Notes under the pieces: generated by a model
Told to the model about the DNA's origin: nothing
The model's database searches: none
The model's input: the letters and a program-made list of their open reading frames with translations, nothing else
Position numbers and translations under genes: made by a program
Virus record (IMG/VR): IMGVR_UViG_3300032218_002273
Location: 1 to 64,000 of that record
Length of the DNA stretch: 64,000 bases
Reading direction: 5' to 3' (one strand)
DNA from: a virus
Taxonomy: Duplodnaviria > Caudoviricetes
Part shown: positions 2,552 through 58,201 of the stretch, in pieces
How the letters are laid out: every line of letters starts with the position of its first letter
Numbering within the stretch: the first letter of the stretch is position 1

Positions 2552-5500
2552 ATGGCTACTAATTTAACCCTTAATCCAAGAGGGTTATACACTAATTATA
2601 ATTCGCTTTCTCAAGTTGAAAGCGGCAGCTTACTTAAAGCTGATAATGTTATATTAGATCAAAAAGGAACTATAAAAAAACGAAGAGGAATCAAATATTA
2701 CGGAGAGTTATTTTCAGAAGAATTTGGTAGCCTTAGCGTAAGAGCTAGGCAATTATTAGAATATAAAGGTAGGATTATACGCCATGTACTTGATAAGTTA
2801 TCGTTCGATGATGGTACAGGACAGTTTACTAGTTTTACTGGCAGTTATTCTGATAATTCTATTGGTGCTAGAATTAGGGGAATAGAGTATAAAGGGAATT
2901 ATTATTTTACGTCTGATGATGGTGTAAAAAAAATATCAGTAAAAAAAACAACTGATCTTAATTCAAATAGCATTTTAGATTCTGGAGTAGCGGCTTCTTA
3001 TGGATTAAAAACACAAGTTATTTTAGATGGTTCTGGTTTTTTAGGATTGGATACATCAACAGGTACTATTAAGTATGTAAAACAACATACTTCATATAGA
3101 GTAACTTGGGGTTATACAGATAATAACAATCTTTTAATAGAAAGTGCTCCTAGTGCCATAGTTTATGCTGAAAATCAATATGCTGATTTATTTTCAGTAG
3201 ATTGTACTATTTATGTACCAAAACATATAAACACTAATTATTTTTTTAGATTATATAGAAGTGAAGTTAGGGCGCAAGATTCAGCTTTATCAACAGAATT
3301 TAATTTAATATTTCAAAGAAAAGTAACGGATGAAGAAATTAATAAAGGATCTTTAATATATACAGATTCTTTATCAGAAGAATCCAGAGCAGCAGGAATT
3401 CCTTTATATGTAAATCCATACTCAGGAGACGGAGAAGTATCTTCAAATTTTAGCCCTCCTTTTGCATCAGATATCACTTTATATCAAAACCACATATTTT
3501 ATGCTAATACAAGAAATAAACATACTAAAATTATATCTTTGCAAGATTTATCTGAGTTAAACGGTTCTCAGTTACAGTTAATTAAACCTGATGAAAGTAT
3601 AAGAACTTTTGTATTTCAAGGTAAAAAAGAACAGTCTACAATTGCTATTCAATCTAAATCTTTTTATAACTCTCCTCAATTTGGAGATTATTTTTTATTA
3701 AATAGTGCTAGAAATGAAAGAAGATATTTTGCGCATATTTTAACAGAAGATGTTAAAGTATCTACTACAGCAAATAGTAATATCATAGCAGTTAATACAT
3801 TTACGTTTACAGGAAATACAACTATATCTTCAGATCTTATAAAATCAATCTCTGGTATCACAACTGGATTTAATTTATATAAAGGTATGTTTATATCCGG
3901 TACAGGAATTGCTAATGATTTAGTATATATTAAAGACATATATCAGGACGAATCAAGTAATCTAACTGTACAACTAAGCGCCCCTATAACCGGACTAGGT
4001 GCGACAGGAGTACAATTTACAACTAGTTATAGCTCTAGATTTACTCCGGGATTTTCCCTAGAAAGTACTTCTACAACAACTATTACTGACAGCAAAGGTA
4101 TTACAACTACAACAAAAGTTATCCCGGAAGATACAATTATAGTATCTATAAATACAAAATATATAACCCTAAATACCATATGTCCTTCTACTGCATCTAA
4201 TATATCTGTAATTACATCTCCTAATACAGCATATACTAATGGAAGAATACCAATTATTATTGATTTAAGACCTCACACATTTACAGGAACTTTTTCTAGT
4301 CCTAAAATTACTGGGATATCCGGTACAGTTATTCAAGATTTAGTTATAGGACAAACCGTAACTCAAGCCTCTCCATCTACTTTTTCAGCTAAAATTGAAA
4401 GTATTTCACAAACAACGGGAGTTTCTACTTACGAAATTACATTAAACTCCATAACAGGTACAGCATCAGGAACTTCATTTATATCAGAATCGGTAACTGA
4501 TCAAGCAGTCGCTGGAGAATTTTCAAATTCAATAGCAGAATTAGATGATTTTTTAGGAAACTCAGGTATACCTATACAAGGTAACTTATCTCTTACAAGT
4601 GATCCGGTTGAAAGTAAAAAAATTACTCAAGTAAATAGTATTTTTGCACAAAATTTAATTCCAGGTCAAATAATAACAGGAGCAGGAATACCTTCTTCTT
4701 CATATATTGAGGCTATATCGGTTGATTTGATAAATAGCACTTCAACTACAACTTATTACACAATAACTCTAAATCAATCCGTATCCTACAGCTTACAACA
4801 GGCGAATTTATTGGTAACTTCTTTTCCATTAACAGCCACTACTACCAACACAAGCTACATATTAGATAATATATCCCATCAGTTTATAAATTCAATACCA
4901 TTAAATAAAATTATATCAGGAACAGGAATACAAGCCAACACCACTATTAAAGCAATTGCTGTAAATGAGGCGGTAGGAAGTAATATTTCAGCAGTCATAA
5001 CAAAAGATAGCTATGTTATTACAAATATACCAGCATCAAATTTTATAGATACTGAATTTTTAAAAGTTGGAAAATATATAAAATCAATAAGTTTTCCGGA
5101 TAATTGCATAATTACAGAAGTAAATAGCGCAGCACGTACTATTACTATAAATCAAAAAGCTACAACTTCTGGAACAACTTTTGTTAGATCTCATAATACA
5201 ATAACCTTAAGTAAACCTACAACAGCAACAGGAAGTAAAATAGCTTTAAGTATTGGGGATAATTCAACTTATCCTATAGTTATTAATTGTAGATTTGTAA
5301 CAATTCAAAATGAGTCTAATGGATATTCTGATTCTGTTTCTGATGGAGCTTCTCCTAATAGTACAGGATTAACTTTTGTGACTGTGCAGGAAGGTTTAGG
5401 GGAAAATAAAAATTCCTCAACTGGACTATTCACTAATATTTTAGTCGAGGATAGCGGTCATTATAATAAACAAGATAGTATTGATATTACAGCTAGAAGT

Positions 5501-43090: not shown

Positions 43091-43115
43091 ATTTATTACT
43101 TAGAGTCTGGTGGTA

Positions 43116-43141
43116 ATTAAAGAGAGGGCTTTCGCCCTCTC
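43116..43141 (-). terminator. Intrinsic terminator, GAAA loop
   Basis: GAGAGGGC-GAAA-GCCCTCTC-TTTAATT. Confidence 0.75.
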
Positions 43142-43145
43142 AATA

Positions 43146-43486
43146 ACTTAGGAGGTTTTCTTGAGTACACTTCTCAAGAAATCAAGTTCTTCCTGCAATT
43201 TAAATATGGTAACTTTGATTGTATAACTATCTTCAAATGCTTTATATTCTTGGAGAAATTTTATAGTCTCTTCTAGTTTAAGAATTTTATCCTGCATAAA
43301 AAACTCCTATGCGATTTTTTGTAATTCCTTTTTAAAATCAATCTCTTCCTCTTCTTTGAAGTCTCTAAAGTCTACGCTTTCAGATTTTACAGGCCCAACC
43401 TCTTCAATTTCTTGATAGTATTTTTTCATAGCATTAATTTTTGCAATAACTAGTTTTTGTTGTGGTGTAAGTTCTTGTTTTTTCAT
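43146..43486 (-). other. Two small early ORFs not in the track (MKKQELTPQQ..., MQDKILKLEE...)
   Basis: Each has a GGAG(G) RBS; about 59 and 49 aa. Confidence 0.55.
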
Positions 43487-43496
43487 AAATCCTCCT

Positions 43497-43556
43497 AGGA
43501 TTCCTATAAACAGTTTGGTCGCTAATCAGATTTTAATTAGACGACTTCTATATAAT
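43497..43556 (-). promoter_or_regulatory. Tripartite early regulatory motif, copy 3
   Basis: GTCGT-N14-ATTAGCGA-N10-TATAGGAATCCT directly before AGGAGG. Confidence 0.7.
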
Positions 43557-43584
43557 AAATAGTGCTTATTTTTTGATTTTAGAT

Positions 43585-43613
43585 AAAAAAAAGAAAGGGG
43601 CTTTCGCCCCTTT
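43585..43613 (-). terminator. Intrinsic terminator, GAAA loop
   Basis: AAAGGGGC-GAAA-GCCCCTTT-CTTTTTTTT after the stop at 43616. Confidence 0.85.
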
Positions 43614-43615
43614 GA

Positions 43616-43942
43616 TTATGCTACTTTCTTTTCAGTAGTTTCGGATAATTCTTTGTCAGAATTGAGTTGGTTAATCTCAGCGCAAACCTTCTTAAGCTCA
43701 TCGGCATGATTTAAGATAAATTCGATAAAATCAGGTGTTAAGTAGTGTTTTACAGCCCCACGCTCAACTCTAAGAGAAAACTTCCCAGAGCTTTGAGCTT
43801 CGTGGATAGCCCAAACAATAGGCTTTTTATTCTTTTCACGGGCAATGTTCGCCATAGAGCTTTTTAAGGATTTACGCATCTCCTCGATTTCTTTTAATTG
43901 AGTCTCTAAGTAAGCCATTTTTTGTTCAAGTGTAAGTGACAT
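43616..43942 (-). CDS. First gene of the leftward early arm, hypothetical (likely start MSLTLEQ)
   Basis: GGAG RBS before ATG 43942; the track's extension to 44131 runs through regulatory sites. Confidence 0.65.
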   Translation of the reverse strand: MSLTLEQKMAYLETQLKEIEEMRKSLKSSMANIAREKNKKPIVWAIHEAQSSGKFSLRVERGAVKHYLTPDFIEFILNHADELKKVCAEINQLNSDKELSETTEKKVA

Positions 43943-44000
43943 AAATACTCCTAAGTTAAAGTTAAAAAAAGAGAAGGACTCGGTGTCCTGCCACTTAACC

Positions 44001-44016
44001 TGCACCGATCGTGCCA
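44001..44016 (-). promoter_or_regulatory. sigma54-type promoter
   Basis: TGGCACG-ATCG-GTGCA, pointing at the 43942 gene. Confidence 0.6.
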
Positions 44017-44021
44017 AGTGG

Positions 44022-44284
44022 CAAGTTGTTGAAATTATTGGACAACAAAATCTGTTGAGTGTTGAAAGTTTGGACGATTTCCGAGAAAACCCAATGATTT
44101 CGCAACTGTTAGGTTTTTTGACAGGTGACAAAAGTTTGGACAGTCCAAGTGATTGAAATTGTGGAGTTTATCGGGATTACAGCTAGATAAAGCTAAGTGG
44201 TTGATAATACAGAGAGTGTTAATAAAATTACAGAGTTAACTATAAGGTCTAGTGATATCAAGTAGTTAGTGTAAGTGCTGGATA
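44022..44284. promoter_or_regulatory. Cluster of IHF-consensus sites
   Basis: WATCAANNNNTTR exact at 44194-44206 (-) and 44256-44268 (+); one mismatch at 44022-44034, 44146-44158 and 44272-44284 (all -). Confidence 0.55.
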
Positions 44285-44321
44285 ATCATTAGGTTTATTG
44301 TAAAATCAAATAGATATATTT

Positions 44322-44473
44322 TGGCATGAATTGTGCAAGCAAGTAATGGCATGAAGCTTGCATTAACAATTATCGTGCCATTATATTTGGCATGGAGTGT
44401 GCATTAGCAAATGTCGTGCCAACTTTTTTTTGGCATTGTTCTTGCATATAATAAACTTGGCATGGAACTTGCA
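44322..44473. promoter_or_regulatory. Array of seven sigma54 -24/-12 motifs
   Basis: TGGCA(C/T)N-N4-(T/G)TG(C/T)W at 44322, 44347, 44388, 44431 and 44458 (+) and 44365-44380, 44406-44421 (-). Confidence 0.7.
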
Positions 44474-44483
44474 AGAGCCAGAG

Positions 44484-45069
44484 GGGGGGGGTAGGCGAGC
44501 TTGAGCGGTCGATTGCGATGTCTATGCATGTGTAAATACTGAGTGGAGTATGTTTGTGTAAGCATCTGCTTACCTTGGTTACTATCTGGGAGGATAGATC
44601 GAGGTAGCATGCAGGGTTATTGCATAGCCTATGTCAGTATGTTTGTAGGTACTAGCTCGATCTGAATAGGGCTTCCTACAAGATAGTAACGGAAAACATA
44701 CGGGAAGTGCGTCAAGATAGGTTGCCATATGGTGTGTGCAGGCTATGCGTTTGTGTATACTGTAGATTACGTTTGGGTACGGGGGTATCCTAGTCTCATA
44801 GGTTAGACTTCTAGTTCCCCCACTTAATTACTTTGAAATTGGCTAAGTAGGCTGTGCCGTTAGGCTGAATAGGATTCTTTCAAGAGGGCTTTACGCTGTA
44901 GTCTTCTGGCCTTCGTTTCTACAGGAGTCGTTTATGTCAACATTCCGGAAATCCCAGATAGTTGATGTACCCCGACTGTCTCTCGCATCCTTGCAATTTT
45001 CACGTTCCCTAGTGAGTAGTCCGAAGTTGTCAGGTAGGGTGTTATCCTACTATGGACGGTCTTCCTTAA
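44484..45069 (-). ncRNA. Candidate long structured non-coding RNA (element A)
   Basis: No credible ORF and visibly GC-richer than the genes. Several exact 8-10 bp complementary pairs; contains a 48-nt motif shared with 55715-55762; late motif at 45070-45079 points into it. Strand is not certain. Confidence 0.5.
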
Positions 45070-45079
45070 TAGTTGTTAA
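45070..45079 (-). promoter_or_regulatory. Late motif TTAACAACTA on the minus strand
   Basis: The only minus-strand intergenic copy I found; it faces the non-coding region. Confidence 0.6.
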
Positions 45080-45851: not shown

Positions 45852-46099
45852 AGTGTACCAATATACTTCCAAGTATGATGCCCGTCAAGTCCAATAGTCA
45901 TAAGTAGCATTTCTTCTGCCATAGATTCTATAATAAATAGTTGATCTAAATAAGCATTATAGAATATAACCTGCACTGATTTATTCATCTCTACTCTCCA
46001 CATACTCAATCTCCTAAGATTAACACAAATGCTAATTTAAGTAGATTGAATATTATATTTTAATATTGGCACTCACTTTGCAGTTCTGAGTGCCATTTG

Positions 46100-55640: not shown

Positions 55641-55885
55641 ATGGGCAAAAAGCCTAGCTTATACTGTGCTAGATCGTAAAAAAGGGAAACCGAGATACTA
55701 CCGGGGCATAATCAATAAACGGTAACTGTCAAAACGAAGGCCAGAAGATGACAGCGAAACGCTACTCAGTATATTCTTATTTAGCGATAACATCGCCAAG
55801 AGGTTAGACGAAAGTTAAAAGTAGTAACTCTAATCGCTCTAAAGGTACTATATATAATAGATACTAGGCGGAGCCGTGCAAGGAA
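55641..55885 (+). ncRNA. Candidate structured non-coding RNA (element B)
   Basis: Follows a sigma70 promoter. Hairpins CTAGC/GCTAG, CTGTCA/TGACAG, GCGAT/ATCGC and a GAAA-capped stem; 38/48 identity to element A. Confidence 0.55.
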
Positions 55886-56349: not shown

Positions 56350-56754
56350 ATGAACTTAATTGACATGTCACAATTTAAAACTTTAGAAGATCTAAAGAAA
56401 CATGCAGAACAATTAACTAAAACAAACTTAATGTTGCAAAATGATATTAAGCATAAAGATGAAAAAATTGCTCATCTAGAGTCTTTACTGAATACTCTCC
56501 CATCAACAGATTTTTTAGTAGAGGATAGGGAAGTTGAGATTTGTAAGATTGAAATTAATAGATTATATCAAAAATCTCTTAGATTTCCATTAGATGATAA
56601 AGAAGTTCGGAATCTTGAGATTCTTGTAAAAACTTTAGCTGTTGCTAGAGGTAGAAACGTATCTGATGTAAAAGAAAAAAAGGACAAGGAAGCTGTAAAA
56701 AATTTACCTGTTGGTAAGTTGGTTGAGCTTGCTAAATCTATAAAAAATGAATAA
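56350..56754 (+). CDS. Putative terminase small subunit
   Basis: 134-aa helical protein overlapping the start of terL; position-based call. Confidence 0.4.
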   Translation: MNLIDMSQFKTLEDLKKHAEQLTKTNLMLQNDIKHKDEKIAHLESLLNTLPSTDFLVEDREVEICKIEINRLYQKSLRFPLDDKEVRNLEILVKTLAVARGRNVSDVKEKKDKEAVKNLPVGKLVELAKSIKNE

Positions 56755-58201
56755 TGAAGAATTAGAACAATTATCTCCTGAAGAAGCTGGAGATATTCTT
56801 TGGCAAAATGGAGATGCGTGGCAATTCTTATTAGATCCTCTTCAACAAAAACTAGTAAGATCTTATCTTCAAAGCGACATAGGTAAAGAACTTATACTTG
56901 TACTAGGTAGACAGGTAGGTAAATCTTATGCTTTATTTACTTTAGCTATGTGCGAATGTCTTCGTAGACCTGGAATTACAGTAGTTTATGTTGCTCCTAC
57001 TTTAAAAATGGCTAAAAAAATTACTCGTATGACTTTAAGAGAAGTTGCAAAAACTGCTCCAAAAGATTGTACTCCTAAGTTTAATACTCAAGATAGCGAA
57101 TATAATTTTCCAAATGGTAGTAAAATAGAATTAGCTGGATTTAATGCCGGGCAAATTGAAGATTCCAGAGGGCCTAAAGCACATTTAATTATTGTAGATG
57201 AGTGCGGATTTATGGATGCTTCTGAATTTGATTATGGTGTAAACTCTGTTCTATACCCAAAACTAAACTCTACAAGAGGGGTTATGTTAATGTGTTCTAC
57301 TTTACCAAAGTCGGCAGCACATCCATATTGGAATAGAGTATTAAAAGCTAAATTAGAAGATCGTTTGGTAGAAGGTACAGTATATGATTGTCCTAGATAT
57401 ACAAAAGATGATATTGATAAATTTGCATCTAGATCTGGCGGATATGATTCTATAGATTTTAGGCGTGAGTTTATGAATGAAATGGTAACAGACGAAGAAA
57501 AAGCTGTTGTACCAGAAGCCACTAAAAACATTATGAATAAGATTGTTAGAGAAGTAACTAGACCTTCTCATTTTGATTGCTATATTGGAATGGATATAGG
57601 TTTTAGAGATTATACCGCTATTTTATTTGCTTATTATGATTTTTTAAAAAATACTGTTGTAATCGAAGATGAAGTTATTATTAAAGGAACTAAGGTTACC
57701 ACCAAAGCAATAGCGGATGCAATAAAAGAAAAGGAAGAAAAACTTTGGCAACATAAAAAACCATTCCTTAGAATTGCAGATAACAATAATTTAATTCTTT
57801 TAAATGAACTTACTCAATCCCCTTACAACTTACCAATATTTCCAACTGCCAAAGATAACAGAGAAGCGGCTATAAATAAGGTAAGATTGCTAATTCAGAA
57901 AGAACAGATTATAATAAACCCAAGATGTGTGGTTTTACAGCAACATTTACAACACGCTACATGGAATAATAAACGTAGCGAGTTTGAAAGAGATCCTCTT
58001 AATGGTCACTTTGACGCATTAGCAGCATTAATCTATCTATGCAGAAATGTTCAATATCAACGAAATCCATATCCACCAGAATACATGATGACTACAGATG
58101 CTTTTTATGTAGATATGAGTAATGGATTTGACGCTCCAAAAGATGATTTTCAAAAACACATTAGAGAAGCTTTTAACCCATTCAAGAAAAAGACTTTTTA
58201 G
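56747..58201 (+). CDS. terL: Terminase large subunit
   Basis: LGRQVGKS (Walker A), LIIVDEC (Walker B), MCSTLP, GMDIGFRD and HFDALAAL nuclease motifs. Confidence 0.92.
   Translation: MNNEELEQLSPEEAGDILWQNGDAWQFLLDPLQQKLVRSYLQSDIGKELILVLGRQVGKSYALFTLAMCECLRRPGITVVYVAPTLKMAKKITRMTLREVAKTAPKDCTPKFNTQDSEYNFPNGSKIELAGFNAGQIEDSRGPKAHLIIVDECGFMDASEFDYGVNSVLYPKLNSTRGVMLMCSTLPKSAAHPYWNRVLKAKLEDRLVEGTVYDCPRYTKDDIDKFASRSGGYDSIDFRREFMNEMVTDEEKAVVPEATKNIMNKIVREVTRPSHFDCYIGMDIGFRDYTAILFAYYDFLKNTVVIEDEVIIKGTKVTTKAIADAIKEKEEKLWQHKKPFLRIADNNNLILLNELTQSPYNLPIFPTAKDNREAAINKVRLLIQKEQIIINPRCVVLQQHLQHATWNNKRSEFERDPLNGHFDALAALIYLCRNVQYQRNPYPPEYMMTTDAFYVDMSNGFDAPKDDFQKHIREAFNPFKKKTF

Follow-up and report, generated by a model that had tools for sequence, protein, structure and literature searches.

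RNA polymerase carrying sigma-54 stays silent until an ATP-driven activator fires it, and sigma-54 promoters combine a -24/-12 element, with the start 11–13 nt after its GC, with an enhancer 80–150 bp upstream and often an IHF bend. Small RNAs can be placed under this control, as Qrr and NrsZ illustrate. Phage transcription is usually framed as the work of host sigma-70, phage sigma factors or phage polymerases, and T7 A1–A3, for instance, are activator-free sigma-70 promoters ~90–125 bp apart. In Salmonella, the sites bound by sigma-54 include those of the small RNA genes glmY and glmZ as well as both zraP and hydH (PMC3844500), and NrsZ depends on NtrB/C (PMC4253122). Non-promoter and intragenic sites in E. 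coli and Salmonella also bind the holoenzyme, with no obvious productive transcription (PMC3844500, PMC4591121). Literature searches turned up no description of arrays of such sites in phages and no paper on phage use of sigma-54.

The array analysed here lies in the first 64 kb (the window) of an 81,763-bp viral record, IMGVR_UViG_3300032218_002273, a tailed phage of ~33% GC that has terminal repeats and was judged complete. It encodes a large terminase, a portal protein, a family-A DNA polymerase, a primase-helicase, ribonucleotide reductase and rIIA/rIIB, and no tRNA genes. No close cultured relative was found: a DNA similarity search of cultured phages with the array region gave no match, the array alone or a foreign array as DNA query gave chance matches only, and two other array-bearing loci were likewise without a cultured relative. 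The array occupies a ~1-kb gap (43943–44933) free of credible genes, flanked on the left by a long block of leftward genes (43942 down to 17333) and on the right by two small rightward ORFs. A 51-aa ORF at 44934 was rejected as a gene, its frame being broken by a 22-nt indel in one relative clade. The first-pass annotation, made from the sequence alone, had stated that neither direction has a protein gene shortly downstream. Rightward this held, with the nearest credible gene at least 740 bp from the array; leftward it did not, as the first gene (43942–43616) begins 380 bp away and has a proximal sigma-54-type site of its own. The large terminase gene (56747–58201) is 12 kb distant, with minus-strand genes in between.

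Seven sites of the pattern TGGCAY-N5-KTG(C/T)W fall within 152 bp (44322–44473) on both strands (Table 1), and all seven, five plus and two minus, are those the first-pass annotation had listed. TGGCAY-N5-KTGYW matches the 64-kb window nine times where 0.31 are expected (largest shuffle, 3); seven of the nine lie inside the 152 bp, for which a Poisson estimate of chance is <1e-20, and the whole 81.7-kb genome holds no strict site beyond those of the window. All seven array sites keep the exact consensus spacing claimed for them, and GG and GC stand exactly 10 bp apart (TGGCAC-N5-TTGCW form) in eight of the nine window sites; the exception is site 3, which lacks the GC. Plus-strand array sites are 25–43 bp apart, the tightest 25–27 bp, and the partners of the two 34-bp convergent pairs are separated by 2 bp, so that simultaneous occupancy of all sites by holoenzyme would be impossible. 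These pairs have a dyad symmetry like that of operators; their spacers are not complementary and hence form no hairpin.

Table 1 Sigma-54-type sites and neighbouring features, with positions in the 64-kb window
Feature	Position	Strand	Description
Monocistronic cassette	43594–43989	-	5′ hairpin 43975–43989, ribosome-binding site, 108-aa gene 43616–43942, strong terminator 43594–43613
Proximal sigma-54-type site	44001–44016	-	Strict match; first leftward gene has its ATG 59 bp further on
Best-conserved non-coding block, candidate enhancer (UAS)	44020–44170		From the alignment of relatives
IHF-like match WATCAA-N4-TTR	44256–44268	+	In the AT-rich stretch between block and array
Site 1	44322–44337	+	Strict pattern match
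Site 2	44347–44362	+	Strict match; repeat D3; 34-bp convergent pair with site 3
Site 3	44365–44380	-	Relaxed match, degenerate: -12 is TTGTT, no GC
Site 4	44388–44403	+	Strict match; second 34-bp convergent pair, with site 5
Site 5	44406–44421	-	Strict match; best consensus fit in the array
Site 6	44431–44446	+	Strict match
Site 7	44458–44473	+	Strict match; predicted start ~44484
G9 run	44483–44491	+	At the predicted start of site 7; C8–9 on the opposite strand in every relative reaching it
Structured non-coding region, candidate RNA or leader	44483–44935	+	Alignments and consensus fold; conservation to ~45070
Isolated strict site	46067–46082	+	Within a hairpin of 8-bp stem; genes around it run on the minus strand, antisense to the site

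For comparison with relatives, we used the contigs of homologues of the neighbouring 108-aa gene at 95, 87, 79, 70, 64 and 54% identity; clades are named by these values, and the window sequence served as reference for array identities. Every relative contig that reaches far enough contains a C8–9 run (opposite strand) followed by 4–7 sites, and every such contig also keeps the proximal site, ~70 bp before the gene. Inside the array, the 87% clade is 95% identical at the motif letters, compared with 64% in the inner N5 and 72% in the spacers; in the 70% and 54% clades the motif letters are 68% identical, N5 23% and the spacers 35–50%. The spacing of 25, 41, 43 and 27 bp is unchanged, with no indels, among the closer clades. 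Judged by these alignments, the motif letters are under purifying selection. Stability is a property of the five plus-strand sites. Sites 4 and 7 are kept in all six lineages and site 6 in five of the six (in the 54% clade, GA replaces its -12 GC; its N5 letters differ), while site 2 is kept in three clades and site 1 in two to three, including the 95% and 87% clades (it is not alignable in the 70% and 54% clades). The two minus-strand sites decay: in the 87% clade the GC of site 5 has become GT, while a deletion has removed the site from the 70% clade, and site 3, which has a GC in no relative and a destroyed -24 half in the 87% clade, is probably not functional. The isolated site at 46067–46082 has an identical copy in the 95% relatives. 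Similar arrays in related phages, which the first-pass annotation had suggested looking for, are thus kept from 95 down to 54% identity and recur further out, in a distant relative (rIIB 54% identical, portal ~42%) whose corresponding 1-kb gap carries six strict sites, the only ones in its 80 kb. A search of viral contigs with the single rIIA protein had returned no match; an alignment-based search succeeded.

On the leftward side, the proximal site has GG, GC and their spacing invariant in all six lineages, with a variable -15 letter, and its geometry is textbook: 59 bp to the ATG, a ribosome-binding site and, after the gene, a terminator. The candidate enhancer block lies ~30–180 bp upstream of the predicted start of this site, at a distance suited to an enhancer. 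Repeats and a 6-bp palindrome occur within the block, and nothing in it was identified as the site of a known activator. The IHF-like match has one mismatch in the 87% clade and is not alignable further out. The 108-aa protein itself gave no family match, and among the neighbouring ORFs that we scanned no family match pointed to an initiator. An AF2 model of the 108-aa protein (pLDDT 83) comprises a long helix, three strands and two helices, and a fold search with it gave no significant match to a solved structure; a weak likeness to the PC4 ssDNA-binding domain (probability 0.77, E about 1) was set aside. The small leftward genes that come after the first cassette (43100–43620) are each followed by a GC-stem terminator (43594–43613 and ~43125–43145), which is an early-gene cassette layout.

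Sigma-70 elements were also sought. A promoter scan gave no excess (12 found versus 13.7 expected), and a TATAAT at 44446 is not conserved in the relatives. The distant relative, L017, has a sigma-70-type extended -10 promoter repeated before each of its small early genes (3160–3560, 3840–3880), and its host would therefore read ordinary sigma-70 promoters. These early promoters, together with strong Shine-Dalgarno sites, may argue against a Bacteroidota host.

Rightward, the array leads into the G9 run. The gap between site 7 and the run is 5–10 nt in the relatives (1 nt in L208, where a second C6 run is present), placing the predicted +1 inside the run in every one of them. The ~450–600 nt that follow are conserved even in the 70% clade, and their plus-strand consensus fold comprises 99 pairs with 92.6% of cells paired, the G9 run pairing with a conserved C tract ~335 nt downstream. 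Thirteen pairs show compensatory change, compared with 5.0 ± 1.6 in shuffles and 0–3 in slid controls, a covariation that is suggestive, coming as it does from four sequences. Folded as a single sequence, the whole 456-nt region is not significant (z -1.1 and -1.6); the structure signal is confined to the comparative analysis and a 171-nt core. The plus strand is favoured as the RNA strand, with a modelled fold energy of -69 versus -49 kcal/mol for the minus strand; G-U-rich helices occur only on the plus strand, which is itself G+T-rich, and the core helices are strand-symmetric. Rfam returned nothing at gathering score and, at E up to 1, only a chance S15-leader match, and nhmmer with the non-coding region found no match in the distant relative or at other array loci. 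One hairpin of the 3′ domain combines an invariant 17-nt loop with compensatory changes in its stem, and the domain recurs as a second, partial copy at 55715–55826 (minus strand), within the other large gap between genes (nhmmer E 4.5e-07). A late-type motif, TTAACAACT, occurs at 45070–45079 (minus), 45187 (plus) and 47059 (plus); the first of these, kept in relatives, lies where the non-coding region ends on the right, is directed back towards the array and could give rise to an antisense, C-rich transcript. As to composition, G outnumbers C ~2:1 over 44440–44770, an excess that extends upstream of the array too, and the array has as neighbours an AT-rich stretch and a nested inverted repeat of 150 nt (z -3.8 on one strand, -4.75 on the other). 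G clusters likewise stand just after a site in the distant relative.

Arrays of this kind are not peculiar to one lineage. Searching with a pattern of two tandem sites, we found matches in more than 120 viral contigs of 33–65% GC (a lower bound), many of them arrays of 5–10 sites, where the chance expectation is estimated at <1. Run against 596 Gb of bacterial genomes, the same pattern matched only 57 places, a large share of them exact tandem repeats. An rpoN domain was found in 35 of 50 bacterial genomes with tandem matches and not in the other 15, many being incomplete MAGs (the tally includes one unpublished genome, G081). Some bacterial-binned contigs carry 7–13 sigma-54-type sites in a few kb—L145, L164 (one 383-kb Chitinophagales MAG contig) and L173 (a Saccharibacteria bin)—and may be mis-binned large phages or prophage regions.

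Among the viral matches listed, one large family of uncultured phages (L011, L002, L032 and 63 more; GC 42–48%, large terminase ~418 aa) contributes 66 of 120 loci. Its array lies at the divergent point between a leftward small-gene block and the terminase arm, 1–1.7 kb upstream of the terminase gene, with sites that mostly point away from that gene and a C-rich block adjoining; its motif columns are 92% identical versus 74% for the spacers. Outside this family, no neighbouring protein cluster is common to more than 7 of 54 loci among the matches listed, and a motif so widespread, with no common neighbouring protein, points to a host factor as the binder. Considering the other phages among the matches listed, 111 of 158 array sites aim at a co-oriented downstream gene. 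Over the non-redundant loci listed plus the window genome, the spacing of same-strand neighbours, within the range that the search pattern allows, peaks at 26–28 and 36–37 bp—one helical turn apart, which would set neighbouring sites on opposite faces of the helix—and convergent pairs are offset by 17–21 bp, divergent pairs by ~26 bp. Of 80 non-redundant listed arrays, 21 have a C5+ run no more than 50 bp upstream and 9 have a G5+ run downstream, where the background is 2.1% per window and strand; the C blocks often contain three or four C tracts.

The letters flanking the motif bear on its identity. In 223 unique phage sites from the other viral contigs listed, 98 of which are not constrained by the search pattern, position -27 is a pyrimidine in 81–83% and -28 a purine in 63–65%, and purines make up 92–97% at -20 and 71–76% at -19 (ranges over the full and the unconstrained set). 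These flanks agree with the extended sigma-54 consensus, which we take to be mrNrY TGGCACGr and which reportedly goes back to Barrios et al. 1999. That work is cited in PMC3844500, whose experimentally bound Salmonella sigma-54 sites have the same form as the phage sites. The GG-N10-GC spacing, the extended-consensus flanks and the selection on motif letters give good support, at the level of sequence, to reading the motif as a sigma-54 element, and the sigma-54 holoenzyme, a host factor, appears to be the best candidate binder.

Neither a sigma-54 activator (PF00158) nor a sigma-54 DNA-binding domain (PF04552) was found in the 81.7-kb genome, and PF00158 is likewise absent from 50 other listed viral records with arrays, of which 18 have a completeness of 90% or more. 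As the phage supplies neither sigma-54 nor an AAA+ activator, firing would have to depend on a host enhancer-binding protein. Such a host activator is possible, and for activators without a DNA-binding domain every sigma-54 promoter is a target (PMC3844500). T5 contained no strict site, and the dependence of FelixO1 and a T5-like phage on rpoN, glnLG and himAD in Salmonella, which its authors attribute to glutamine and RpoS (PMC8744999), is unexplained by such sites.

Given the motif, how well it is conserved, how its copies are arranged and how widely phages carry it, the reading that emerges as best—one to which we give a roughly even chance—is that the array consists of docking sites for host sigma-54 (RpoN) holoenzyme and acts mainly as a promoter battery for the non-coding region. 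The five co-directional sites would be read rightward by the holoenzyme, and site 7 would start transcription inside the G8–9 run, opening the structured non-coding region; the product would be a separate RNA or a long leader of ~450–600 nt. The site at 44001–44016 would be a separate promoter for the first leftward cassette, and the two promoters would share an upstream region made up of the enhancer-like block and the AT-rich, IHF-like stretch. Packing the sites may help a single infecting genome to capture host holoenzyme. We thus infer binding by the sigma-54 holoenzyme, initiation in the G run and the use of a host activator. Conserved plus-strand sites at fixed spacing, a predicted start that always falls in the G run and a covarying region downstream all look promoter-like, and of the possibilities that the first-pass annotation had raised, loading of polymerase for a nearby promoter and RNA agrees best with orientation, spacing and predicted start. 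Against a promoter battery speak the missing activator gene, here and in the 50 other listed records; a packing too tight for joint occupancy; and the number of sites, five tandem promoters exceeding the need of one RNA. Nor do strand-symmetric core helices and a late-type motif at 45070 that points the opposite way favour it, and the G/C homopolymer blocks of other phages adjoin their arrays in a different orientation.

A first alternative is a sink or roadblock. Stable closed complexes with no productive transcription could, with the array amplified by replication, drain a small host sigma-54 pool, or could block transcription or replication between the leftward genes and the non-coding region. 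Closed complexes are stable and silent in the absence of an activator (PMC3844500), non-promoter sigma-54 sites are common in bacteria (PMC4591121), and the activator gene is missing from this phage and the 50 others listed. Packing at 25–27 bp with convergent pairs 2 bp apart is a poor geometry for independent promoters; in other phages, the spacing peaks place neighbours on opposite helix faces. Orientation should not matter to a sink, however, and here the conserved sites all point the same way while those on the other strand decay; a sink also leaves the fixed relation between site 7, the G run and the downstream element unexplained, and sites in other phages are biased towards downstream genes. 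We consider a sink or roadblock rather unlikely, and the RpoN decoy that headed the first-pass annotation gained no specific support, all stable sites facing the conserved G run and non-coding region. That transcripts could instead prime replication is a principle familiar from T4 oriF/oriG, ColE1 RNA II and mitochondrial CSB II: transcription from the promoters would enter the G run and then a stretch rich in G and poor in C, and the hybridised nascent RNA would serve as primer; the minus-strand sites would fire into the AT-rich stretch at 44160–44320. The G9 run at the predicted +1, the 2:1 excess of G over C, the adjoining AT-rich stretch and inverted repeat, the G clusters of the distant relative and the G5+ runs downstream of 9 of 80 listed arrays (background 2%) would all suit this speculative variant, an R-loop origin. 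Since G is in excess upstream of the array as well, most other arrays have a C block upstream instead (21 of 80 listed), and compensatory changes are more in keeping with a folded RNA than with a hybrid, we hold such an origin to be very unlikely.

The motif might also only resemble the consensus and be bound by something else, whether a phage regulator, an initiator, the small terminase or a host factor other than sigma-54. The operator-like dyad symmetry of the 34-bp convergent pairs would suit such a binder, as would the position of the array in 66 of 120 listed loci, 1–1.7 kb upstream of the terminase gene and beside a C-rich block, and the 15 of 50 bacterial genomes, many of them incomplete MAGs, that have tandem matches and no rpoN domain. 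On the other hand, the array described here is 12 kb from the terminase gene, the motif occurs in phages of 33–65% GC that share no neighbouring protein, its degenerate flanks match the sigma-54 consensus, and the pair spacers are not complementary and form no hairpin; another binder is, on balance, improbable. The first-pass annotation had named terminase or initiator iterons among the things that would overturn its claim. Replication-origin iterons were judged unlikely: the motif is common to unrelated phages, no initiator match turned up among the neighbouring ORFs scanned, and only the motif letters are conserved between copies. A terminase site (cosB or pac) fared no better, with the terminase adjacent only in another phage family.

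Should the promoter reading be right, the phage programme would be tied in part to the signalling state of the host, through whichever activator is active, and the lineage would make a compact test system in which a conserved array comes with a predicted start of defined position and an RNA that is itself conserved. If the sites are sinks, they would represent a DNA-based way of shutting off a host regulon. More broadly, and only tentatively, we propose that many unrelated phages seize scarce host sigma-54 polymerase through activator-less arrays, often by G/C homopolymer blocks, which in the present phage would launch a G-started structured RNA or prime an R-loop. Were this true, both the class of phage control region and the use of an enhancer-dependent host polymerase would be new to the searchable literature.

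Known systems resemble parts of this layout. With the sigma-54 promoters of small RNAs such as glmY, glmZ, Qrr and NrsZ, the array shares a -24/-12 element that would drive a non-coding RNA; those small RNA systems have one promoter, a known activator (GlrR, LuxO or NtrC) and mapped enhancer sites, whereas the phage has five tandem and two reversed sites and a predicted start in a G8–9 run. The divergent zraP/zraSR (hydH) locus provides a parallel for outward-facing -24/-12 elements around a shared upstream region: in the phage, 44001–44016 faces left and the sites from 44322 onward face right, with ~300 bp between them that contain the conserved block and the IHF-like site, but one of the two sides is a five-fold array. 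T7 A1–A3 are likewise host-polymerase promoters packed at the head of a phage transcription unit; the sites described here are instead sigma-54-type, 25–43 bp apart, partly overlapping and, in principle, enhancer-dependent. Finally, the bound yet unproductive sites of E. coli and Salmonella set a precedent for the sink or roadblock reading, although they are single, scattered and mostly intragenic, whereas the phage array is dense, intergenic and conserved across phage lineages.
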